Of a DNA stretch of 64,000 nucleotides, positions 2,116 through 64,000 are shown piece by piece. This DNA comes from an uncultured bacterium (lineage in GTDB: Bacteria > Babelota > Babeliae > Babelales > Babelaceae). Position 1 is the stretch's first letter, and every line of letters begins with the position of its first letter. The notes beneath the pieces were generated by a model. The model made no database searches, was not told the origin of the DNA, and saw only the letters and a program-made list of their open reading frames with translations. The DNA lies in contig CAWFXL010000001.1 in assembly GCA_963819815.1 (NCBI GenBank), positions 672,001 through 736,000 on the forward strand, read 5' to 3'. The translations under genes and the position numbers were made by a program.

Positions 2116-3444
2116 ATGGGGAGTGCTATGTATGTTATAAGATCAAACGAGAAGTTTATTTTCGAATCCTTCGAACGACCTTTCATTAGCGCACTCCTTG
2201 GACCTCGAAGGGTCGGGAAAACAACTTTGGTTGAGTATTATAAGCGCCAACATCCTGAGAGGAAATGGATCACTCTTAATATGGACATATTGAGCCAGCG
2301 AAATCGCATCGCCCAAGAAGAGCTCGAGTTAATGATCGAAGAAGCAGCCCTCCAAAGAATTGGAGGAGAAAAAAAGATCTGGGTATTCATTGATGAAGCC
2401 CAAAAAAGTCCTGAATTGTTCGACCAAATAAAAATAATCTACGACACCTATAAGGATCGAGATGCTGTTAAGTTTTTGCTCACCGGCTCTGCGCACCTTA
2501 ACTTACATAAACTAACCACTGAATCTCTTGCTGGCCGCGTAGAGCTCTTAAATCTTCGCGAATTTAATCTCAAAGAACTGGTCCTGCTTCAGCACAATGA
2601 GCTCCATTTTCCCAAAGACAACATTTTAGATGTTATAATTAATGGAAAGCAAAAAAATTTACTTGAGGATATAGTTCTTACCGTACGACCTTTTCAAAAA
2701 TTATTAGAAGAGTCCTTATTCGAGCATATGCTCTGGGGAGGTCTTCCAGAGGTTATTAAAGAGCCTTCAGCAGGCTACCGGCTCAAATATCTTGGAGATT
2801 ACTTACAAACCTATTTAGAAAAAGACATTCGTGCGATCGACTCCATAGGAGATATAAACCTTTACAACAATCTCCTAAGAATCTCCGCTGAAAAAACCGG
2901 ATCAATTCGTGACGACGCAAAGGTCATCGAAGCACTTCACTGCTCACGCGACACTCTTGTGAAATATAGAGGATACTTAAGCGCTACTTTGCAGTACATG
3001 GAGCTGTTTCCTTATATCAAAAGCTCATTAAAAAGACTCGTTAAATCTCCCAAAGGATATGTCATAAATAATGGTCTCGTAAGCTATTTAACAGGAATAC
3101 ATGATATTGCCCTCTTAAAAAACACTGGCCTGATAGGGCATCGCTTTGAGAATTGGTTCCTCAACGAAATACAAACCTGGCTTGATACCCAACAACAAAG
3201 AAATGCTCTCTATTACTGGCGAACCCATTCAGGTGCAGAAATAGATGTTGTTATCGAGATAGGAAGACATATAGTTCCAGTTGAAATCACCTACTCTCCG
3301 TACATAGACTCCAAAAAACTTAATAACCTGAAAGGTTTTCTCAAGGATTATCCGGAAGCGTCAATTGGTATCTTTTGCTATATGGGAAAACTATCATTTG
3401 ACGAGAACAATAATATTCTGTATCTACCAGCCTGGCTTATCTAA
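2116..3444 (+). CDS. AAA+ ATPase (AAA_14 / DUF4143 type) with C-terminal PD-(D/E)xK-like domain
   Basis: GPRRVGKT, IDEAQ, LTGSA, SLAGR, WGGLPE, KSPKGY, C-terminal YYWRT..GAEIDVV...PVEI. Confidence 0.88.
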   Translation: MGSAMYVIRSNEKFIFESFERPFISALLGPRRVGKTTLVEYYKRQHPERKWITLNMDILSQRNRIAQEELELMIEEAALQRIGGEKKIWVFIDEAQKSPELFDQIKIIYDTYKDRDAVKFLLTGSAHLNLHKLTTESLAGRVELLNLREFNLKELVLLQHNELHFPKDNILDVIINGKQKNLLEDIVLTVRPFQKLLEESLFEHMLWGGLPEVIKEPSAGYRLKYLGDYLQTYLEKDIRAIDSIGDINLYNNLLRISAEKTGSIRDDAKVIEALHCSRDTLVKYRGYLSATLQYMELFPYIKSSLKRLVKSPKGYVINNGLVSYLTGIHDIALLKNTGLIGHRFENWFLNEIQTWLDTQQQRNALYYWRTHSGAEIDVVIEIGRHIVPVEITYSPYIDSKKLNNLKGFLKDYPEASIGIFCYMGKLSFDENNNILYLPAWLI

Positions 3445-3537
3445 GCAGTCGTATCGTTACAAAAAACCAATGCCGTTTATGTTTATGGGCGCACCTCAAT
3501 TATGTAGAGCTCTAACCAGAGCTCTTTGTCCAGCAGA

Positions 3538-4593
3538 TTATGAAGCGAGCTGTTTGAGAGCATCTTCCGTAACGCCCTGTTTACGAAGCCACGAAACTGC
3601 ATCAATTGCAGCAGCAGCACCCCGTCCAGCAGCAACAATAGCTTGGCGATAGATGTCATCTTCTACATCACCGGCTGCAAATACACCCGGAACTGAAGTC
3701 GCCTGGGTCCGACCCTCAACGAGAATATGGCCATTTTCAGAAAGGGCAAGCTGCCCTACAAAGAGATCGGTATTCGGATGATGTCCTATGGCTAAGAAGA
3801 CGCCATCTGCGTCTAAAACCTCTGTTTTGTTCGTCTCAAAGTTCTGAATTTCAATCCCCGTAACTCCTTCGTTGTTACCAAGAATACTCTTTACCTGGAC
3901 CCCATACCGAGGAGGTTTGATCGTCGGATATCCCTGCAGTTTCTGTTGCATTGAATGAGCAGCGCGCATATGCTGCCTCCGCACCAAACAGGTAACGCTT
4001 TTAACATGAGGAGCAAGCTGGAGAGCCTCTTCAACTGCTGAATCTCCACCACCTATAACAAAAACATCTTTCCCCTTAAAAAATAGCCCATCACAGAGGG
4101 CACATGATGATACCCCGTTGCCATAGTGGGTTTCTTCTCCCGGGACATTAAGCATTTTGGGAGTGGCACCCGTTGCAATAACCAAAGAGAGCACTCGGTA
4201 CATGATACCTTCTTCTGTTCCTATTACAAAAGGCCATTGGCTAAGGTCTACTGACACAATGGTCTCATCAAGAATTTTTACACCCGCCTGACGGGTCTGC
4301 TCAATCATAGTATCCATGAATATATCACCTGCAACCTTCATAACGCCGGGATAATTGTCAATGAATGATGTTTTAGTAAGCAATCCACCAGATGTCTGCC
4401 CCATAAAGAGAGTCGTTGGCATTCCAAGACGAACACTATATTGCGCAGCAGCTAACCCAGCAGGGCCCGATCCGAGAATCACCATAGGAAGTAGGTCAGG
4501 CACTTTAGCTTTAGAAAGTTCCTCACCCATAAGGCTCGAAAAGCACAATCCCATCACTGCTACAAAAAGAATAGATATATAATTTTTCATCAC
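3538..4593 (-). CDS. trxB: Thioredoxin-disulfide reductase with N-terminal Sec-type signal peptide
   Basis: GSGPAG FAD motif, ATGA, CALCDG redox centre, GGGDSAVEEA NADPH motif, AAGDV..YRQAI; ~22-aa hydrophobic leader MKNYISILFVAVMGLCFSSLMG. Confidence 0.93.
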   Translation of the reverse strand: MMKNYISILFVAVMGLCFSSLMGEELSKAKVPDLLPMVILGSGPAGLAAAQYSVRLGMPTTLFMGQTSGGLLTKTSFIDNYPGVMKVAGDIFMDTMIEQTRQAGVKILDETIVSVDLSQWPFVIGTEEGIMYRVLSLVIATGATPKMLNVPGEETHYGNGVSSCALCDGLFFKGKDVFVIGGGDSAVEEALQLAPHVKSVTCLVRRQHMRAAHSMQQKLQGYPTIKPPRYGVQVKSILGNNEGVTGIEIQNFETNKTEVLDADGVFLAIGHHPNTDLFVGQLALSENGHILVEGRTQATSVPGVFAAGDVEDDIYRQAIVAAGRGAAAAIDAVSWLRKQGVTEDALKQLAS

Positions 4594-4636
4594 AATAACC
4601 TCATCATAGTTTTCTGATACCCTTTATACTCCATAT

Positions 4637-4666
4637 AGCATACCGAAACTAGTCACTGCCAGTCAA
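4637..4666 (-). promoter_or_regulatory. Putative sigma70 promoter of trxB
   Basis: Minus strand TTGACT-18 nt-TATGCT; homologous to the promoter at 6803-6831. Confidence 0.55.
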
Positions 4667-4740
4667 AGGGTCATGCCCCTTGCATCAAAGATCACTTCAA
4701 AGAAAGCGCTGGACCAAACTTTATGATAGTTACTAACCGG

Positions 4741-5595
4741 TTAGCCATGGGTTTCTTCACTATTCATAACAAAATCATCAAAAAGACTCAAGGGATCTGC
4801 TTCATTTCTATATTTTTCCACAGCTTTACCAAGAAGCTCTTTCTGATGCTCATGTAAATGGACCGTGAAATGATCATGATCTATAAGTGCTGCAGGGTTT
4901 TCATGAGCTTTATCCATAAGCTCAAGAAGCGCCCGATCAGAAGAGATAATCTCTTTTTGTTGGCTGGTTAACGAACGTTTAAACCGTTCCATGATTGGTA
5001 AATTGAGAGCTGATTTGATAAGTAAGCCAAGTATACCAAGTGTCCCCAAGCCAAGAGCTATTCGCCCCTTATGATTCCAAAACCATCCCGCATCCTTCGA
5101 TAATGACTCGCGAGTAGAAGCAAGGTCTCCTCGCAAAGCCGTGCCAAGGTGATAACGATCGGCACTTTTCTTAGCCCCATACAGTACGAGTAAAGCTACT
5201 CCCATTGCCGCGAAGTCCTTCTTAGATGGCCCTTCACGCTTAATGCGATCATAGACTATATACATAGGAACCCCAACATTTTCAATAAGGTAATCTTTAA
5301 GATAGTGTCTCAAGGACTTCTGTTCACTTTTTTGGGCACTTTCTAAAGATTTGAGAGCTAGTAAGGTGAGTACCCAGACCCCGATAATTGGACTGGTAAC
5401 GTAGGACACGTCAGCAGCACCGTTCATAAGAAGAATAGCTAGCTCTTCAGATGATTCCGCGATTTTATGTGAAGTGCATTTGTGCTCAATGAACATCTTT
5501 TGAGCATCAGGCTCTGGTGTTGGGGCCATACCATATAGAGGAGCCAGTGACGCACTCATTAGGATTCCCCAAAAAAACGTAGTCACTTTTTTCAT
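4741..5595 (-). CDS. Exported/membrane hypothetical protein (signal peptide plus several hydrophobic segments)
   Basis: 284-aa ORF; leader MKKVTTFFWGILMSASLAPLYG; hydrophobic stretches. Confidence 0.75.
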   Translation of the reverse strand: MKKVTTFFWGILMSASLAPLYGMAPTPEPDAQKMFIEHKCTSHKIAESSEELAILLMNGAADVSYVTSPIIGVWVLTLLALKSLESAQKSEQKSLRHYLKDYLIENVGVPMYIVYDRIKREGPSKKDFAAMGVALLVLYGAKKSADRYHLGTALRGDLASTRESLSKDAGWFWNHKGRIALGLGTLGILGLLIKSALNLPIMERFKRSLTSQQKEIISSDRALLELMDKAHENPAALIDHDHFTVHLHEHQKELLGKAVEKYRNEADPLSLFDDFVMNSEETHG

Positions 5596-5707
5596 AGTTA
5601 TTCTCTAGAATACTGATTCTAATATACCCTTAGGGTGCCATAATACCCCTCATTGTCAACAGCCTGCATGATCTCAAGCTCAGATTTTGCAGCCTATTAC
5701 ATAAGAA

Positions 5708-5737
5708 GTAGGAGGACCCTAGAGAGAGCCCTCCTAC
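5708..5737 (-). terminator. Putative intrinsic terminator after the 5763-6758 gene
   Basis: GTAGGAGG...CCTCCTAC stem, followed by TTCTT on the minus strand. Confidence 0.55.
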
Positions 5738-5762
5738 CTGTAGCTTCATAGCTTCATACATG

Positions 5763-6758
5763 TTACCTGCGAGCGCGTGCCATCATTCGAGGCTGTTGCT
5801 TAGACTTTGTCGGCATGGAAGCCCGTTGTACATTGCGTCGAGTTGGCTTTGTTTGAGCGTTCGTTACATTAAGTTTGTAGATTTCGCGAAAGTTCTCTTG
5901 TTTCTCTTTACAATCTTTGATGATCTCAAGTTCACCTTCGATAAACTTCACTTGTTTACGAGAAATAGCCCTTTTACCGGTCATATTCTCAAGATCTCCT
6001 AAGATATCAACTACCTTATCAGCATCTTCTGCTGCAAGAGCTTCAGTAAGCTCAGGGTGCCAAGTACCAAGAGAATCAGACAACAATTGACCAGCTTGCA
6101 TGATTCGATCGTTCGTATAGGCTACAAAGATTTGTAGCAGCATGAACTTTTGTTCAAGATCTAAACGATCAATAAGCCTTGTATCACGCAAGAGTTGATG
6201 TGGGTCTCTTGTGGCTACTTGAATATAAGGCTTTATAATTTTACGACGCTGTTCTGTATCTCTAATATTGCTAAACACTTCCCAGAATAAGGACCCTGCA
6301 GCCTGCAACCATCCAGGAAATTCAGCAGTTTCTTCTACGTCATTCACACGAGCGCCTGGCTTTCTTGGGGTCACTTTTTTCCCAAGATTGTTCAAAAAAT
6401 CTTCTGAATCTGGAGTTTCAACCGCAAGTTCATCTTGGCCTTGGAAGAAGAGCTTATAGGCTAGCCAACCCGCTGCAGCTGCGCCTAAAACACCGTATCC
6501 CAAGGTACGAGAATCAGCATTTTTTACGTAGTCGCGAGCCTCACTCAATTTCTTCTTTGCATCTTCAAATTTCTGCTTTGCGTCTACTGGATCATACGTA
6601 TAGTATGCCCCAGCACCCGCACCAGCTAATCCTAGAGCTGCGAGAACGTTACCCGCAGTAAAATATGATTCGGATTTCTTTGGTTTTACTGCATCGAGAC
6701 CCGACACTGCACATCCCATCACCGCAAGGAGAAGGATAGAAGTATAACGATTCATCAT
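5763..6758 (-). CDS. Exported hypothetical protein with two Gly/Ala-rich hydrophobic segments and a basic C-terminal tail
   Basis: GAGG RBS before ATGATG at 6758; signal peptide MMNRYTSILLLAVMGCAVSGLDA; VLAALGLAGAGAGAYY and GVLGAAAAGWLAY segments. Confidence 0.78.
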   Translation of the reverse strand: MMNRYTSILLLAVMGCAVSGLDAVKPKKSESYFTAGNVLAALGLAGAGAGAYYTYDPVDAKQKFEDAKKKLSEARDYVKNADSRTLGYGVLGAAAAGWLAYKLFFQGQDELAVETPDSEDFLNNLGKKVTPRKPGARVNDVEETAEFPGWLQAAGSLFWEVFSNIRDTEQRRKIIKPYIQVATRDPHQLLRDTRLIDRLDLEQKFMLLQIFVAYTNDRIMQAGQLLSDSLGTWHPELTEALAAEDADKVVDILGDLENMTGKRAISRKQVKFIEGELEIIKDCKEKQENFREIYKLNVTNAQTKPTRRNVQRASMPTKSKQQPRMMARARR

Positions 6759-6802
6759 AATAACCTCATAATAGTTTTTTCTTATTATATTCAACTATTT
6801 AT

Positions 6803-6831
6803 AGCGTATCGCGAATACGCAACCCCGTCAA
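6803..6831 (-). promoter_or_regulatory. Putative sigma70 promoter of the 5763-6758 gene
   Basis: Minus strand TTGACG-17 nt-TACGCT. Confidence 0.55.
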
Positions 6832-6985
6832 AAGGGTCCCTTTTTTTGCGCTGTAGACCTCAGGTTAAAGCATGCCACATAACACAAGCAATCATTTAAT
6901 CGATACATTGGCAAAGAAATAGAGGAATGACGGCGTCTGGAGAGACGCTATAGCTTGGCCAGCCAACGACAAGCATGCATTCATT

Positions 6986-7010
6986 AAAAAAAGCTCTCCT
7001 TTGGAGCTTT
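6986..7010 (-). terminator. Terminator, third (diverged) copy of the paralog-array terminator
   Basis: AAAAAAAGCTCTCCTTTGGAGCTTTT hairpin with U-tract on the minus strand. Confidence 0.6.
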
Positions 7011-7043
7011 TGGGCCCTTAAGCTAGCCTAATTGCAAAACATT

Positions 7044-7676
7044 TTATTGCATTGCCCCTTGAATAGCCTCACCAGAGGATAACAAATTATAATAGCCAAC
7101 AATGGCAGCAGCAACACTTACTATGCCGATTTGAGCATTACGACGAGCATTTCCATTGCCATCTTTTATATCATTGATGAAGTCGGATGCAGACTGGACA
7201 GAGCTATCAATCATACCCTTGAATGCTGGTATAGTTTTGTATGCACTTCCAACCATTTTGCCTGCTAAACTAATCAACGCACCCAGTGCAGCGACTTGGG
7301 TTGTTGGGTTAGTTATGTATGACGCGACGGCAATGCCCGTGAATCCCGGTATAGGGTTGTATGTACTTCCAACCATTTTGCCTGCTAAACCAGCCAATGC
7401 ACCCAGTGCAATGGCAATGCCCACTCTTGACTTCCAGCTAGCTCTTTCACCGAGCCAGTCATTCAAAATATTTTTAACAACAGCAATTATGCCAGGTGCT
7501 TGATAAATAGGCACATCAGGTTCCGGTTGAACACGCATGCCAGGTGCTTGATGTATAGGAGCAACTACATTAAAAATAGGCTCCCCAGCCTTAACTACTG
7601 AAAGAACAGACCCTATGTTAAGAAATATTGTTCCTAATACCAAAAGTGCCTTACCTACGCGGTTTACATAAGTCAT
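7044..7676 (-). CDS. Exported hypothetical protein, paralog C of a tandem triplet, with internal 40-aa and 16-aa duplications
   Basis: Start MTYVNRVGKALLVLG after GGAG RBS; shares WLG..ASWK and DFINDIKDGNGNARRNA with 8506-9084; 120-bp-period repeat at 7239/7359. Confidence 0.75.
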   Translation of the reverse strand: MTYVNRVGKALLVLGTIFLNIGSVLSVVKAGEPIFNVVAPIHQAPGMRVQPEPDVPIYQAPGIIAVVKNILNDWLGERASWKSRVGIAIALGALAGLAGKMVGSTYNPIPGFTGIAVASYITNPTTQVAALGALISLAGKMVGSAYKTIPAFKGMIDSSVQSASDFINDIKDGNGNARRNAQIGIVSVAAAIVGYYNLLSSGEAIQGAMQ

Positions 7677-7780
7677 AGTTTTTTTCTCCATAGTATTAGG
7701 TATTACCAATAACACATTCATCATCAAATTCTTCGTTACAAGTAAAAGATGGTTGGACCAGCTAAACTGCAAGGATATTC

Positions 7781-7847
7781 AAAAAGAGCTCTCTTCTGAG
7801 GAGAGCTCTATAAATACTTAAAAGATCTTAATTTTGCAACTAAGAGT
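7781..7847 (-). terminator. Duplicated 3'UTR/terminator of paralog B
   Basis: AGAGCTCTC...GAGAGCTCT hairpin plus ATCTTAATTTTGCAACTAAGA, near-identical to 8440-8505. Confidence 0.7.
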
Positions 7848-7861
7848 AATAGTCATCTAGC

Positions 7862-8335
7862 TTAGTAAAGCGAGTATAGGGTAGTTTCCTTAGAAGGATA
7901 ACGCCCAGCTACGAAACCAGCCGCGACTTGTTCGTTTGCCAGCATAGCATTATATGCAATGGCAGCAAGAACAGCAACCGTTGATGTAATGACGGCTCTT
8001 GATTTCCAGGTAGCTTTGTCACCCATATAGTTATGCCAAATATCTTTCAACTTTGAGATCAAACTAGGTGCTTCATAGACGGGCTCAAGTTTTACGCGGG
8101 CGGTTGTCGAATCCCTAAGAACCGGTGCATCAAAGGTGCCCTCTACCGCGCACTTTGCCCTTTTCCCACCAGCTTTAATGTCTGGATGGGCCCAACCATC
8201 GGCTACAAGTGCTGTTCCTCCTGGAGTTGTCCAACCTATAATCTTAGGGGCTGGCGCTGCAGCATCCACAGAGGTGTTAAGAGACGCTATTCCTAGCACA
8301 ACAAGTACTTTACTTACGTGTTTTATATAATTCAT
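7862..8335 (-). CDS. Exported hypothetical protein, paralog B
   Basis: AAGGAG RBS; signal peptide; APAPKIIGWTTPGGTALVAD..WAHPDIKAGGKR shared with paralog A. Confidence 0.78.
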   Translation of the reverse strand: MNYIKHVSKVLVVLGIASLNTSVDAAAPAPKIIGWTTPGGTALVADGWAHPDIKAGGKRAKCAVEGTFDAPVLRDSTTARVKLEPVYEAPSLISKLKDIWHNYMGDKATWKSRAVITSTVAVLAAIAYNAMLANEQVAAGFVAGRYPSKETTLYSLY

Positions 8336-8439
8336 ATTTGCTCCTTAGTTAGGAAATACCTGTGACATGTTCCTCATCAAGTTTTTCGTTACCGCTAAAA
8401 GAAAGTTGGACACGCCAACTGCAAAGACGTTCATAATAG

Positions 8440-8505
8440 AAAGAGCTCTCCTTTTGGGGGAGAGCTCTATGAATTCTTAAAACAATCTTAATTTTGCAAC
8501 TAAGA
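8440..8505 (-). terminator. Duplicated 3'UTR/terminator of paralog A
   Basis: AGAGCTCTCC-TTTTGGG-GGAGAGCTCT hairpin plus ATCTTAATTTTGCAACTAAGA. Confidence 0.7.
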
Positions 8506-9084
8506 CTACTTGTTGAATGGCCATTTTTCGCAATAATAGAGAGCGCCAGCAACACCAGTAGCAGCAACTGCACCGACGATAGCAGCGTTACGACGAGCGT
8601 TTCCGTTACCATCTTTTACATCATTAACGAAGTCAGCAGCTGACTGAGCAGCACTGTCAACACCGTCTTTGAATGTAGGTATAGTTTTGTATGCAATACC
8701 AGCAAGAACAGCAGCACCTACTGCAACGCCAGTTCTTTCTTTCCAGCTAGCTTTGTTACCTAGCCAGTTATCAAAAACATCTTTAGCTTTTGCAACCAAG
8801 CCTTTTGATTCATGAATAGGTTCAAGTTTAACGTTCTCTTTCTTTACAGTATCATAAAGAACTGGTACGTCAAAGTTGCCCCTTATTTCGAATTTTTCCC
8901 TTTTACCGCCAGCTTTGGCTTCAGGATGGGTCCATTTGTCTTTATCAGCCACAAGAGCTGTTCCACCTGGAGTTTTCCAACCTACAATCTTTGGAGCTGG
9001 GGCTGCTGGAGCAGTTGCAGCTGCGTTAAGAGACGCTGATCCTAGCACCAATAGTGCTATACTTAAGTGTTTTACATAATTCAT
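8506..9084 (-). CDS. Exported hypothetical protein, paralog A
   Basis: GGAGG RBS; signal peptide MNYVKHLSIALLVLGSASLNA; two Ala/Val/Gly hydrophobic segments. Confidence 0.8.
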   Translation of the reverse strand: MNYVKHLSIALLVLGSASLNAAATAPAAPAPKIVGWKTPGGTALVADKDKWTHPEAKAGGKREKFEIRGNFDVPVLYDTVKKENVKLEPIHESKGLVAKAKDVFDNWLGNKASWKERTGVAVGAAVLAGIAYKTIPTFKDGVDSAAQSAADFVNDVKDGNGNARRNAAIVGAVAATGVAGALYYCEKWPFNK

Positions 9085-31249: not shown

Positions 31250-32101
31250 CTATAGACTAGAAAAGTCTATGTCTGCAAGAATCTCATACGTCAGGAGCTT
31301 CATTCTTTTCTGAATCAGTTCGGCTATCTTCATCTGCCGACTCAAATAAGTAGCGTAGTCTGGTGAAGCAAGCACCATATCAAATGAATGCATACTATAT
31401 CGAATGATCGAATCTTGTGGATTTATACTTTGGAATTTGTACCCTTCCAGAGCTTTTTTCGCTCCACGACTATAGTTTTTATAATTTTCAAAAGGCTTCT
31501 TATTCGACGCGCTCGATGGATCATCTATGGAGAAGTCTTTGAAGATTTCAGCAGAAGCTTCATCAAATAATGCTGCCTCTAATCCTGCTATATCAAAGTC
31601 TTTCTTTTGGCAGATCTCTATGATCTTCTTATAATGCGCCAGTCCTCTAGCATAGCAATCATCTGCGGTCAGTTCTGGAGCTTTTTGTACAGCAGCTTTT
31701 GGTTGTCCTGTTACCTCAGCTTTAAAAGTCTCAATCATATCTTGAAGCTGGGTACGAGTCATACCTCCAGCCTTATGGATAACTTCTTGACCTTTATGGT
31801 TAGCTATGAAGGTCGGGACTCCCTTGATACCTTTGGTAATTGAAGAAAGACCTTTGTTGTCGATATCTACGACACAAAAGGTAATGTCAGGATATGCTTG
31901 AGCGAGTTCCAAGAAATAAGGTTTTGTCTGTTTGCAGGGTCCACACCAACTTGCCGTAAACATTGCAAGCACAGGCTTTGGTCCTTGTACATGTTTTGTA
32001 TACTCATCTACGCTCGCAATTATTATAGCGTTTGCTTGAAGTCCTGCATAGATGCTCGTAAGAGCGCAAACCACAAATAGTCTTGTCATTTTAGTAATCA
32101 T
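31250..32101 (-). CDS. Signal-peptide-bearing thioredoxin (WCGPC) with extra C-terminal helical domain
   Basis: Leader MTRLFVVCALTSIYAGLQANA; FTASWCGPCK; cis-Pro GVPTF; ~150-aa unknown C-terminal domain. Confidence 0.88.
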   Translation of the reverse strand: MITKMTRLFVVCALTSIYAGLQANAIIIASVDEYTKHVQGPKPVLAMFTASWCGPCKQTKPYFLELAQAYPDITFCVVDIDNKGLSSITKGIKGVPTFIANHKGQEVIHKAGGMTRTQLQDMIETFKAEVTGQPKAAVQKAPELTADDCYARGLAHYKKIIEICQKKDFDIAGLEAALFDEASAEIFKDFSIDDPSSASNKKPFENYKNYSRGAKKALEGYKFQSINPQDSIIRYSMHSFDMVLASPDYATYLSRQMKIAELIQKRMKLLTYEILADIDFSSL

Positions 32102-38052: not shown

Positions 38053-39445
38053 ATGTATACGCAAGGACATATTCATTTTGTTGGTATCGGTGGTATAGGT
38101 ATGAGCGGCATTGCCAAAATCCTTCGCTCACAAGGGTATACCATCTCAGGATGCGATTCGGACCTTTCGCAAAAAAGTGTCCAGGACTTGCTTAAGTTAG
38201 GATGTACCATTCATCAGGGGAATAATACTCCTCAGTGTCGGGACCATACAATCGACGTCCTGGTCTATTCCTCAGCTATTCGTGAATCAAATGAAGAAAT
38301 CACCTATGCACAGACTCGAGGCATTCCAACGATTCCCCGAGCTTTAATGCTTTCAGAGATTATGCGCACCAAATTCAGCATTGGAGTAACGGGCTCTCAT
38401 GGTAAGACAACGGTTACTTCACTCATTTCACATATTCTCATTGAAGCCAATCAAGATCCTACCGTCATTATCGGAGGACATCTCAAGGCTATCTCCTCAA
38501 ATGCTCAACATGGCTCAGGAAAATTCTTAGTTGCTGAGGCTGATGAAAGCGATCGATCCTTCCTCCGACTCTATCCTACCATAGCAGTTATTACAAATAT
38601 TGGTCTTGAGCATCTTGATACCTATAAGGATCTTGAAGATATTAAGAAGACCTTTGCAGAATTCATTACGCATGTTCCTTTCTATGGAAAAGCGGTTGTC
38701 TGCCTTGATGATCCCAATATTCGATCACTGCTCCCGTTTCATCAGGTAAAAACTATTAAGTATGCACTTGATCAAGAAGGGGCTGATATCTATGGTACCG
38801 ATGTCGTCCTAGGAACACACGAATCTACCTGTACCGTCTATAATAAGGGAATTCTATTGGGTACTCTTGACGGTTTCTATGGCGGGTAAGCACAATCTTC
38901 TGAATGCTCTAGGAGCCCTCGCAACGGTGCTTGATATCGGAGTTTCATTTGAAGAGGCGGCTCATGCTCTGCAGACATTTAAAGGCGTGGACCGAAGATT
39001 TACCTATAAAGGTACCTTCCAGGGCGCAGAGATTATCGATGATTATGGACATCACCCTACTGAAATCCTCAATACCCTCCTGGTCGCACGCAAAAGGACT
39101 AAAGGAAAACTCATCCTCGTCTTTCAGCCACATCGATTCTCTCGTACTGAGCTTCTATGGGATGACTTTGTAAACCTGTTGGCCTACAGTGCTGTAGATG
39201 AGCTCATTATTACTGACATTTTCCCTGCAAGCGAAGATCCCCGTCCAGGCATTACTACGTCGGCTCTCGTACAAGCTATCGTAGCAAAAAATCCCCAATG
39301 CCCTATCACCTATGTACCTCAATCAGAGAATTTCATAGAGATACAAGCACTTCTTGCCAAGAAAGCTTCACAAGATGATCTTATCTTGCTTCAAGGAGCG
39401 GGGAAAGTAACGAAGCTCGGTCCACTCCTTGCACAAGCTACTTAG
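38053..39445 (+). CDS. murC: UDP-N-acetylmuramate--L-alanine ligase (single frameshift at ~38869)
   Basis: HFVGIGGIGMSG, GSHGKTT, EADESD; DDYGHHPTE and FQPHRFSRT in the second frame. Confidence 0.95.
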
Positions 39446-61935: not shown

Positions 61936-63084
61936 ATGAAAAATCTATTTATTTTTTGTGGACTACAGCTCTTAATAATACCATGTGAGGCTGCAGAGTC
62001 ATCATGCCTAGCAAAACCTCGATCTGAAGAGACTACGGCACAAGACACCAAACTAGAATCCCTCTTTAAAGTAATCCGATTCGGCAACATGTCTGAAGAT
62101 GATCTTTTGAACAAGGTTGATGAATTACTTAGCCAGGGCTGCGACGTGAACCAAGTAGGCTATCTAGACAGAACCCTGCTCATGTTTGCAGCTGCGCGAG
62201 ACTATAGAGCTGTAGTACAGAAGCTAATAGATGCAGGTGCCGATCTGAAAATTCGGGACAAGGGCGGTATGAATGCGCTTATGTTTGGCGCCTATCAAGG
62301 GCATGCGGAAATATGTACGCTTCTTATTGGACATATGGGGAGAATCAGTATCGATGCTCCTGATAATAGCGAGACAACCGCCCTCATGTATGCTGCACGT
62401 AGCGGTAGTAAAGCTACCATTTCTCTGCTGTTACAGCATGGAGCTCAGACCAATGCGCGAAACAAATCAGGTTCAACTCCCCTTATGCAAGCCTGTGGTG
62501 CCTCGTTTCCGTCTGTTGAGGTGTCCTGGCGTTCATCTTCGCAAAAAGGGAAAATTAAAACCTTGGCTGAGGCGCGTACTGCTGGCATAGATGCCTGTAC
62601 AGAACTTCTGCAAAGCGGAGCCGACATGGGTGCTGTTGATGCAAGTGGCAGGTCAGCACTTTTTTATGCTGCGTTAAATTTGCGAGAAGATGTATGCAAA
62701 CTATTGTTGAGTCGAGGAGCTACAAGTATACGAATTGTTGAACCAGACAACTTACTCTACGTCAACGATCTTATGTCAGCAGCTCTTTTAGGTAATGAAA
62801 CTTGCTTAAAGGTATTGCTCGATGCTGGCGTACCCGTAAATGCCAAAAATGATCACGGCGAAACAGCTCTTCTTAAAGCGGCTTCTCGGGGTCATCTACC
62901 CTGCATTTCTTGCTTGCTCACTGCCAAAGCAGATATAGAGCTATGCGATGATACCGGTCTTACACCATTATATGCGGCTGCACAAGAAGATCAAAAACAA
63001 GCTGTTGCCACTCTGCTTAAAGCGGGCGCTCGGCGAACTCTTGATCCTCGCTTTCAACATATCAATAGCAGATTTTCATGGTAA
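61936..63084 (+). CDS. Exported ankyrin-repeat protein
   Basis: Signal peptide ending CEAA; repeated TALMYAA..G / TPL..A / GA.VN motifs. Confidence 0.92.
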   Translation: MKNLFIFCGLQLLIIPCEAAESSCLAKPRSEETTAQDTKLESLFKVIRFGNMSEDDLLNKVDELLSQGCDVNQVGYLDRTLLMFAAARDYRAVVQKLIDAGADLKIRDKGGMNALMFGAYQGHAEICTLLIGHMGRISIDAPDNSETTALMYAARSGSKATISLLLQHGAQTNARNKSGSTPLMQACGASFPSVEVSWRSSSQKGKIKTLAEARTAGIDACTELLQSGADMGAVDASGRSALFYAALNLREDVCKLLLSRGATSIRIVEPDNLLYVNDLMSAALLGNETCLKVLLDAGVPVNAKNDHGETALLKAASRGHLPCISCLLTAKADIELCDDTGLTPLYAAAQEDQKQAVATLLKAGARRTLDPRFQHINSRFSW

Positions 63085-63203: not shown

Positions 63204-64000
63204 ATGAAAAATCTGATTATTCTTTGTGGGCTCTCACTAGGATGCGGGATGCCGTGCGAGGCTGCAAAGCCACCATGCATAACAAAATCTCAACATAGAT
63301 TCATAGACGACGAAACACAGACAGCAAAATTTAACTCATTTGCCATAGCCCTCTATCGGGACACTAAACCTGAAGATGAGCTTTTAAAAAAGGCTCGTGA
63401 ATTACTTAGCCAGGGAGTCGATGTCAACAAAAAACATCATTCCTTAACCTTACTCATGCTCGCGGTTGCGAAAGGATATGGAGCTTTAGTACAGGTGCTG
63501 TTAGATGCAGGTGCTGATCTGAGCATGCGCAGTTCAACTGGTATGACGGCACTCATGATTGGTGCTTATCAACAAGAAGCAGAAATGTGTAGGCTGCTTA
63601 TACAACACATGGAGAAAAAGCGACAGTACGGTACCATTGCCCGTGCTCTTATAGAGCGCATGGGCTCTTGTGATATTAAAGGAGCCTTACCAGGTGCTCA
63701 CAGGCTCTGATCAAGAAGGTATCGATGCTACTGATGATACTGGAATGACCGCTTTAATGTATGCAGCTCATAATGGAGACAAAGCTACTACTGCTCTACT
63801 TCTCCAGCATGGCGCACAGGTTAATGCTCGAAACAAGTTTGGTATAACTCCTCTTATGCTATCCTGCGGGGCCCCCATACCACGAGCAGTACGAGACTTT
63901 GTTGAAATTATTACTCTCAGCATAGATGCCTGTGTAGAGCTTCTTCAAAATGATGCCGACATTATGCTTCGTGACCAGAATGGAAAATCAGCGCTTACGT
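63204..64000 (+). CDS. Second exported ankyrin-repeat paralog; frameshift near 63700; runs off the window
   Basis: Leader homologous to 61936; after the shift IDATDDTGMTALMYAAHNG...GAQVNARNKFGITPL is colinear with the first paralog. Confidence 0.85.

Follow-up and report, generated by a model that had tools for sequence, protein, structure and literature searches.

The gene considered here occupies positions 3538–4593, on the reverse strand, of a 64,000-nucleotide stretch of DNA (the window) from an uncultured bacterium of the Babelaceae (GenBank assembly GCA_963819815.1, contig CAWFXL010000001.1), a member of Candidatus Dependentiae whose genome, as analysed, is an 88% complete assembly of 1.64 Mb in 2 contigs. 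It encodes a paralogue of the low-molecular-mass (low-Mr) thioredoxin reductases (TrxRs) with a predicted signal peptide, an assignment that rests on the open reading frame (ORF), on matches to TIGR01292, Pyr_redox_2 and solved TrxRs, and on an AlphaFold model. The ORF specifies 351 residues from a GTG start at 4593 and 350 from an ATG start at 4590, and a Shine-Dalgarno (SD)-like GAGG on the same strand (4599–4602) lies 5 nt and 8 nt, respectively, 5' of these codons; residues are numbered throughout from the ATG. When the interval 3300–5000 was scanned for promoters and terminators, 2 promoter-like sites were found, against a mean of 3.0 in shuffles, and the datasets matching the same interval included no RNA, only three soil-metagenome DNA entries with small shares.

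By every sequence test applied, the product is an intact low-Mr TrxR, in agreement with the first-pass annotation, which had recognized the GSGPAG, CALCDG and GGGDSA motifs of TrxB. It matches TIGR01292 (thioredoxin-disulfide reductase) with an E-value of 2e-93 and a score of 312.5 bits, below the curated equivalog cut-off of 343.45, whereas the leaderless paralogue encoded elsewhere in the genome reaches 366.9 bits; the match to Pfam Pyr_redox_2 has an E-value of 1.5e-41. Solved TrxRs (4jnq, 2a87, 1tde and 1f6m) were matched with a best E-value of 1.6e-70, and their identity with the window enzyme is 40–50% over residues 35–345. All family and structure alignments start at residues 33–37, leaving residues 1–22 outside, and the core is followed by only 11 residues, without a C-terminal thioredoxin domain. 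The AlphaFold model, for which 26 orthologues served as input, has a mean predicted local distance difference test score (pLDDT) of 89.3; residues 2–25 form a lone helix detached from the fold (pLDDT 65–69), residues 22–28 fall below 50 as a linker, and a confident TrxR fold begins at residue 32. Between the 22-residue leader and the core there is a linker of ~14 residues.

Catalytic and cofactor motifs, all read on the reverse strand, are well preserved in an alignment of 26 sequences. The FAD-binding GSGPAG (residues 40–45; 4456–4473) has G40, G42 and G45 invariant in 26/26 sequences, as are C163 and C166 of the redox-active CALC (residues 163–166; 4093–4104), which forms part of CALCDG (163–168) and aligns with CATC of the solved TrxRs; G180–G182 are likewise invariant in the dinucleotide-binding GGGDSA (residues 180–185; 4036–4053). 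Further along, VRRQHMRA (residues 203–210; 3961–3984) aligns with the HRRDxFRA of solved TrxRs (4jnq and 2a87), specifically with HRRDGFRA and HRRDEFRA of the Brucella and Mycobacterium enzymes, and R204 is found in all 26 sequences and R209 in at least 90% of them. We take these arginines to be the NADPH 2'-phosphate site, as in the E. coli enzyme.

Leader and start site

Residues 1–22 of the window TrxR (MKNYISILFVAVMGLCFSSLMG; 4525–4590, reverse strand) form a predicted Sec-type signal peptide, with MKNY as n-region, ISILFVAVMGLCF as h-region and SSLMG as c-region, and with likely cleavage before EE. Its h-region of 13–14 residues and n-region charge of +1 are followed by 15 residues with a net charge of −1, its uncharged span is 20 residues long, and the succession of n-, h- and c-regions matches the Sec (signal peptidase I) architecture, in which the core has 7–15 residues. 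Cleavage may take place at LMG/EE (G at −1, L at −3) or at CFS/SL; clearer cleavage-type sites, such as ATA, TIA, ASA, AHA and SIA, are present in many orthologues. The basic-hydrophobic-polar leader described at the outset is real, preceded by a ribosome-binding site and kept as a feature across the order, and it lacks a twin arginine, as had been stated. Tat export was considered and rejected on two grounds, the lack of RR in the leader and the failure to find TatC in the source genome (88% complete; the control search matched in 11/14 genomes). The VMGLC of the window leader does not fit the lipobox [LVI][ASTVI][GAS]C, a canonical form of which is carried by several homologues (LLSSC in L108, LVGC in L109, LGGC in L124, LLGC in L128, LAAC in L026, LSSC in L015 and IIAC in L010); Lgt and LspA were both found in the source genome, and a gene for YidC lies within the window.

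That the leader is translated is indicated by the distribution of start codons. An in-frame internal ATG (MVILGSGPAG) is situated 4 codons ahead of the glycine motif and lacks an SD motif; a protein initiated there would have 4 residues N-terminal to the glycine motif, as against 7–15 in leaderless TrxBs. In 22 of 29 short-form orthologues an SD-like motif of at least 4 nt is found 5' of the leader start, and in 16/29 the 15 codons nearest the glycine motif include no ATG, GTG or TTG; the count rises to 20/29 on exclusion of starts only 2–3 codons ahead of the motif, use of which would remove the first strand. Those 16 orthologues must have a translated leader, since no other start codon lies near the domain. 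In a related genome (G001) the leader frame is open and retained at 97% identity. Initiation at the internal Met, which the first-pass annotation had named as an outcome that would overturn its proposal, is thus unlikely as judged from these comparisons.

The leaders of the short forms differ in sequence and have a common layout, comprising a K/R start, a hydrophobic core (median h-region of 13 residues), small residues and a neutral or acidic stretch; the net charge of the 15 residues that follow is zero or negative in 24/30. Since it recurs in orthologues of related genomes, the leader is not a chance feature. The h-region finder misplaced the core in L013 and in three rows (L100, L099 and L004) of the p4 type described below.

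Paralogues and the NADPH-type site across the order

Four TrxR homologues are encoded in the source genome, one of them leaderless, another the window protein, and the remaining two leader-bearing TrxR-thioredoxin fusions. The leaderless TrxB has 309 residues (contig C1, 73446–74342), and its TIGR01292 score, given above, exceeds the cut-off; a second trxB of this kind had been sought as a check on the original proposal, and its presence fits the window gene being a specialised exported copy. Of the fusions, one (487 aa; C1:244603–245511) combines an N-terminal hydrophobic segment and a TrxR with a C-terminal thioredoxin (CASC), and the other (p4, 480 aa; C1:1327882–1328784) has a signal-like leader, a TrxR-like core with CGLCDG in which the NADPH motif is lost, and a thioredoxin (CPSC). 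Fusions of the p4 type have a conserved xYAPID motif after the leader, followed by CG[IL]CD and GGGDIA, and have lost the NADPH motif, which in the p4 type of the source genome is replaced by IVPGPRMTAH.

TrxR matches were obtained in 41/41 related genomes searched, which represent 17 families of one order. Matches with E below ~1e-30 gave 119 recovered frames, and 115 of these, from 39 related genomes, were kept after one duplicate fragment and three truncated frames had been dropped. In a FastTree phylogeny of the core, a leaderless-type clade of 36 sequences is split from the other 79 with a support of 0.999. A hydrophobic N-terminal extension is present in 78/79 members of the leader-bearing clade, the exception (L132) also being without CxxC, and in 2/36 of the leaderless clade (L108 and L123), where a third leader flag (L111) was a motif mis-detection and is not counted; the conservation in relatives that an exported enzyme had been expected to display is thereby borne out. 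At least one leader-bearing paralogue occurs in 37/39 genomes. From their sequences, the leader-bearing TrxRs appear to constitute an old, order-wide Dependentiae clade that exists beside the leaderless cytoplasmic TrxB. As a separate observation, the TrxB of L108 (G037:C21) nests in the leaderless clade and has independently gained a lipoprotein signal, MNKNILLIVIASLLLLSSC, in a genome without any member of the main leader-bearing clade.

In a wider search, 122 of the best 150 among 1.84 billion representative proteins have an extension of at least 25 residues with a hydrophobic 10-mer, and a strict lipobox is present in 10 of these 122; by this measure the leader-bearing family is large in metagenomes. 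In some representatives (P0089, P0141 and P0149) the domain order is reversed, a signal peptide or lipobox being followed first by thioredoxin and after it by a TrxR with canonical HRRDxFRA. A search of the ESM Atlas yielded nothing more specific than generic TrxR clusters of many phyla, the clusters of 10 leader-bearing representatives bore no label other than 'thioredoxin reductase (NADPH)', and that for 2 of them, and a related-locus search in genome contigs matched only a 97% identical metagenome-assembled genome.

The two clades differ at the position of the NADPH-type arginines. Both the short and the long leader-bearing clades keep LVR[KRGS]xxMRAA, whereas the leaderless clade has, across the order, a VHILDKLTAS-like sequence without arginines; in the leaderless TrxB of the source genome (L001) and nearly all its orthologues, VHISKKLSAS/VHILDKLTAS replaces HRRxxxR, with GGGDTA retained. 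Judged by motif, it is the exported-looking paralogues that look NADPH-specific. The leaderless cytoplasmic TrxB may lack specificity for NADPH, and could draw on NADH or some other donor.

The long TrxR-thioredoxin fusions carry a ~20-residue hydrophobic segment with K/R on both sides, which looks like a membrane anchor that could adopt either orientation. In basal fusions with this architecture a lipobox takes the place of the anchor, which suggests that the anchored long forms may face outward too. The presence across the order of an extra, leader-bearing copy of a normally cytoplasmic enzyme suggests NADPH-type redox repair outside the cytoplasm of these small parasites of protists.

What has already been published is only the TrxR expansion in Babela. 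The Babela massiliensis paper mentions 'expansion of ... thioredoxin reductases' and leaves it unexplained (PMC4378268), and the four TrxRs tabulated in its supplementary file 9 match those of the source genome in architecture; they comprise one leaderless protein (SignalP 0, TMHMM 0), 369-aa and 473-aa proteins that are SignalP-positive, and a 480-aa protein with one transmembrane helix (PMC4378268). In RefSeq, the Babela fusions have cyanobacterial proteins as their best hits, and signal-peptide calls are tabulated for three thioredoxins (PMC4378268 and its supplement). In the portions of the text available, the TM6 comparative paper brings up TrxR solely as an indication that oxidative stress is tolerated (PMC4776705), thioredoxin goes unmentioned in the Chromulinavorax paper (PMC6561590), and one review applies the term 'membrane-bound thioredoxin reductase' to quinol-linked enzymes (PMC13488963). 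Phrase searches of the literature for a secreted, periplasmic, exported or membrane-anchored thioredoxin reductase, or for periplasmic NADPH, returned nothing relevant.

Candidate partners, cofactors and predicted site of action

Eleven thioredoxin-domain matches were found in the source genome, where one leaderless thioredoxin (WCGPC) compares with six that have signal peptides. One of the six, already singled out in the first-pass annotation as a signal-peptide thioredoxin and now confirmed as such, is encoded in the window (31250–32101, reverse strand; 283 aa) with the leader MITKMTRLFVVCALTSIYAGLQANA, a WCGPCK site and a match to Pfam Thioredoxin (E 5e-19, residues 28–124); it is a candidate substrate of the window TrxR, a pairing that we infer. 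The other five (L041–L045) are clustered at C1:897467–902114, all have signal peptides, and their sites read WCGPCK, WCPPCK, WCGACT, NCAPCK and TCTACD, such that a WCGPC or WCPPC site is present in three of the six. Two MsrA-MsrB fusions (C1:65877–66821 and C1:442411–443421) have hydrophobic N-termini, the second having a degenerate MsrA active site, and no leaderless Msr was found in the source genome.

Cofactor supply appears to depend on the host. NAD kinase (PF20143) was found in 1/41 genomes, that one with 7% contamination (the control matched 12/14), and FAD synthetase was not found in the source genome; NADP(H) and FAD would therefore come from the host and cross the periplasm. The 4–5 secretin matches in the source genome offer a possible route across the outer membrane.

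We tentatively favour, at somewhat less than an even chance, an interpretation in which the window gene encodes a Sec-exported NADPH-type TrxR that feeds an extracytoplasmic network of thioredoxins and Msr enzymes on host-derived cofactors, its catalytic domain being predicted to act on the far side of the cytoplasmic membrane, in the periplasm and possibly further out. The unfolded precursor would cross the membrane via Sec and have its leader cleaved near LMG/EE, after which the apo-enzyme would bind host FAD and draw electrons from host-derived NADPH, a cofactor that must cross the periplasm anyway because these bacteria apparently lack NAD kinase. Cys163 and Cys166 would then pass the electrons to signal-peptide thioredoxins, including the one in the window, and these would serve exported clients, for example the two leader-bearing MsrAB methionine sulfoxide reductases. 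A fuller version, in which reductase, WCGPC thioredoxins and MsrAB would make up a complete pyridine-nucleotide-driven periplasmic thioredoxin system, fuelled by host NADPH and FAD entering through the outer membrane, is possible and rather more doubtful; such a system would belong to the Dependentiae and possibly to other obligate intracellular bacteria.

A number of observations weigh against this interpretation, in which export of the window TrxR is itself a prediction. We know of no NADPH-dependent enzyme that works in a bacterial periplasm, and a Sec-exported flavoprotein must load its FAD outside the cytoplasm. The LMG/E of the window c-region is non-canonical relative to AXA. A full-length DsbD, one of the proteins for which a search had been recommended, was found, and the standard periplasmic route is therefore already in place; why the periplasm should need reducing power from another source as well is not obvious. 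Glucose-6-phosphate dehydrogenase, present in 25/41 genomes, is leaderless in the source genome, and cytoplasmic NADP(H) therefore probably exists. Three genomes (G011, G017 and G034) yielded no leaderless TrxB, and some leader-bearing form may therefore serve the cytoplasm there, while in the long fusions the C-side flank of the hydrophobic segment is positive in 28/33. The Babela orthologue of the window TrxR was positive in only 1/3 SignalP networks (PMC4378268), and signal peptides, which are very common in the phylum, were called on 44% of Chromulinavorax coding sequences in the part of that paper available (PMC6561590).

Several of these same observations would be expected if the window protein were instead a membrane-tethered cytoplasmic enzyme, with the leader as an uncleaved anchor and the catalytic domain facing inward, that fills the housekeeping role of an NADPH-dependent TrxR, another donor being used by the leaderless paralogue, in which the NADPH arginines are missing. 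The main argument for such an enzyme is that the NADPH-type motif is kept only in leader-bearing clades, NADPH being a cytoplasmic cofactor; the three genomes without a visible leaderless TrxB, the K/R-rich flanks of the long forms, and the 20-residue uncharged span of the window leader point the same way, as does the requirement of DsbD for a cytoplasmic thioredoxin system. However, the positive n-regions and neutral or acidic downstream flanks of the short forms predict an N-in/C-out orientation, their hydrophobic cores are short and give way to small residues, homologues with canonical lipoboxes can only be extracytoplasmic, and the candidate partners, six thioredoxins and two MsrAB proteins, are leader-bearing too. 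We therefore consider a cytoplasm-facing tether unlikely.

A second alternative accepts Sec export and takes the enzyme further, in that TrxR, perhaps with thioredoxins, would leave through a secretin-type pathway or in vesicles for the host cytosol or vacuole, compartments rich in FAD and NADPH in which it would blunt host oxidants or alter the host redox state. A cleaved, soluble TrxR would be free to leave the cell, the genome has secretin matches, and the kept NADPH motif fits a workplace in the host cytosol; in addition, two ankyrin-repeat proteins encoded in the window (61936–63084 and 63204–63710) carry signal peptides, and in Babela signal peptides are carried by 79/126 ankyrin proteins, for which secretion into the amoeba was proposed (PMC4378268). 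Against this, the sister paralogues are transmembrane- or lipid-anchored, such that at least those would stay on the cell, the conserved partner gene upstream encodes a predicted membrane protein, no secretion signal is recognisable besides the Sec leader, and nothing shows passage of the outer membrane. A secreted effector is accordingly a decidedly unlikely explanation.

It is also conceivable, if quite improbable, that the protein is an exported flavin thiol oxidase or other non-NADPH enzyme, which would use FAD and O2 to make envelope disulfides and so supplement VKOR. Its TrxR fold with CxxC would allow this, GliT (4ntc) being a distant match (E 1.3e-10), and neither DsbB nor a DsbA-like Thioredoxin_4 protein was found in the source genome; the p4 fused paralogues have lost the NADPH motif, and TM6 genomes are described, in the part of the comparative paper available, as without an electron transport chain (PMC4776705). 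The retention of the NADPH motif in the exported-looking clades nevertheless argues against an O2-dependent thiol oxidase, which would not need the NADPH-type arginines and GGGDSA that are conserved here; moreover, VKOR was found in the source genome, and the exported thioredoxins have a reducing-type WCGPC site. A mis-called start, with the leader an untranslated annotation artefact, is scarcely credible, for all that an in-frame ATG precedes the glycine motif, given the placement of the SD-like sequence, the spacing to the motif, the orthologues without a nearby start and the open leader frame in G001.

Returning to the favoured exported TrxR, two suggestions about its clients fared less well than the enzyme itself. 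For a chlamydia-like disulfide-cross-linked envelope we found no evidence, and the Cys-rich exported substrates said to be encoded in the window are a weak case; five exported neighbours at 4741–9084 are Cys-poor (four were scored, at 0.3–0.8% Cys), and only two leader-bearing window ORFs reach 2.5–3% Cys, against 1.3% overall. Host NADPH is a putative electron source for the window TrxR.

Neighbouring genes and comparison with known systems

Directly upstream of the TrxR gene, on the same strand, lies the conserved partner gene (4741–5595), whose 284-aa product has no assigned family and has an N-terminal signal or transmembrane segment, further hydrophobic stretches and a helical C-terminal region with two LTxxQ-like motifs in its helices. 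By tblastn, homologues immediately precede the TrxR orthologue in the same orientation at 6/14 loci, and alignment adds three loci (L013, L014 and L019) and a partial one (L015), for 9–10/14; at the loci found by alignment the two genes are separated by ~10–30 nt or overlap. No Pfam family was assigned, only 8 relatives, none of them named, were found among 5.8 billion proteins, and the AlphaFold model (mean pLDDT 58.4) is confident only for residues 200–265, which are helical. A link between the partner and CpxP/Spy-type LTXXQ proteins was unsupported, since a Pfam search at E up to 1 with 9 members gave 13 unrelated single hits. The partner is a candidate anchor or docking site for the TrxR.

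Elsewhere in the window, three tandem genes at 7044–9084 encode related leader-bearing proteins of no assigned family, with common starts (MNYIKHVSKVLVVLG, MNYVKHLSIALLVLG) and common C-terminal motifs. The starts of the two ankyrin-repeat proteins are signal-peptide-like and near-identical (MKNLFIFCGLQLL... and MKNLIILCGLSLG...), and both proteins are in keeping with the Babela reports of ankyrin effectors that are secreted. Between 20100 and 28900, the coding sequences of EF-G, EF-Tu and S7, together with the beginning of the S10 ribosomal operon, are split into many short frames; because these genes are essential, the breaks look like assembly indel errors rather than pseudogenes, and the TrxR region is unaffected by them. 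A Mur ligase is also present as two overlapping ORFs (Mur_ligase and Mur_ligase_M at 38053–38889, Mur_ligase_C at 38879–39445), the result of a frameshift or a further assembly error.

In the textbook view, NAD(P)H chemistry takes place in the bacterial cytoplasm, and electrons reach the envelope only via membrane relays such as DsbD. If their localisation is confirmed, order-wide signal-peptide, lipoprotein and transmembrane TrxRs with NADPH-type motifs, coexisting with exported WCGPC thioredoxins and Msr enzymes, would challenge that rule. The fuller, host-fuelled system outlined above, if real, would be the first example of an NADPH-dependent redox pathway at work outside the cytoplasmic membrane of a bacterium, and would make the periplasm of the parasite a biochemical extension of the host cytosol. 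Confirmation would likewise reveal a new way for genome-reduced parasites to exploit host cofactors, and would explain the TrxR expansion in Babela massiliensis.

Among known systems, TrxB of the E. coli type is like the window TrxR in fold, core length, FAD-binding GxGxxG, CxxC, GGGxxA and HRRxxxR-type arginines. The window enzyme differs in its 22-residue leader, its linker and its sub-cut-off score, in coexisting with a leaderless TrxB, and in being paired with an unknown membrane or exported protein. A closer parallel to the sister paralogues is NTRC of cyanobacteria and plastids (7p9d and 7p9e were matched), in that the 487- and 480-aa proteins, found order-wide, are TrxRs with a C-terminal thioredoxin; the beginning of the inter-domain linker is still present in the short form, whereas the window TrxR has no thioredoxin domain, only its 11-residue tail. 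Unlike NTRC, the Dependentiae forms have transmembrane, lipoprotein or signal-peptide N-termini, and in place of CGPC most of their fused thioredoxins have CPSC, CASC or CSSC. NTRC classically serves a 2-Cys peroxiredoxin, and no AhpC/TSA-family peroxiredoxin was found in the source genome (the control search matched in 14/14 genomes).

DsbD/CcdA, the established periplasmic reducing route, and the proposed system would both deliver electrons to periplasmic thioredoxin-fold proteins. However, DsbD relays the electrons across the membrane from cytoplasmic thioredoxin, whereas here a soluble flavoprotein would oxidise NADPH outside, for which no precedent outside the cytoplasm was found in the literature searched. 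FAD in the periplasm can be used for flavoprotein maturation without Tat export of a holo-enzyme, as indicated by the available portions of work on the Shewanella exporter Bfe (PMC3551548) and on Treponema flavin trafficking (PMC4436053). Those cases, as far as these portions describe them, concern exported or hydrolysed bacterial FAD, none with NADPH, whereas the FAD of the window TrxR would be host-derived. GliT, DepH and HlmI are TrxR-fold dithiol oxidases that do not use NADPH and are cytoplasmic biosynthetic enzymes. The window TrxR is like them in fold, FAD and CxxC, with GliT (4ntc) as a weak sequence match; unlike those enzymes, however, its clade conserves the NADPH-type site.

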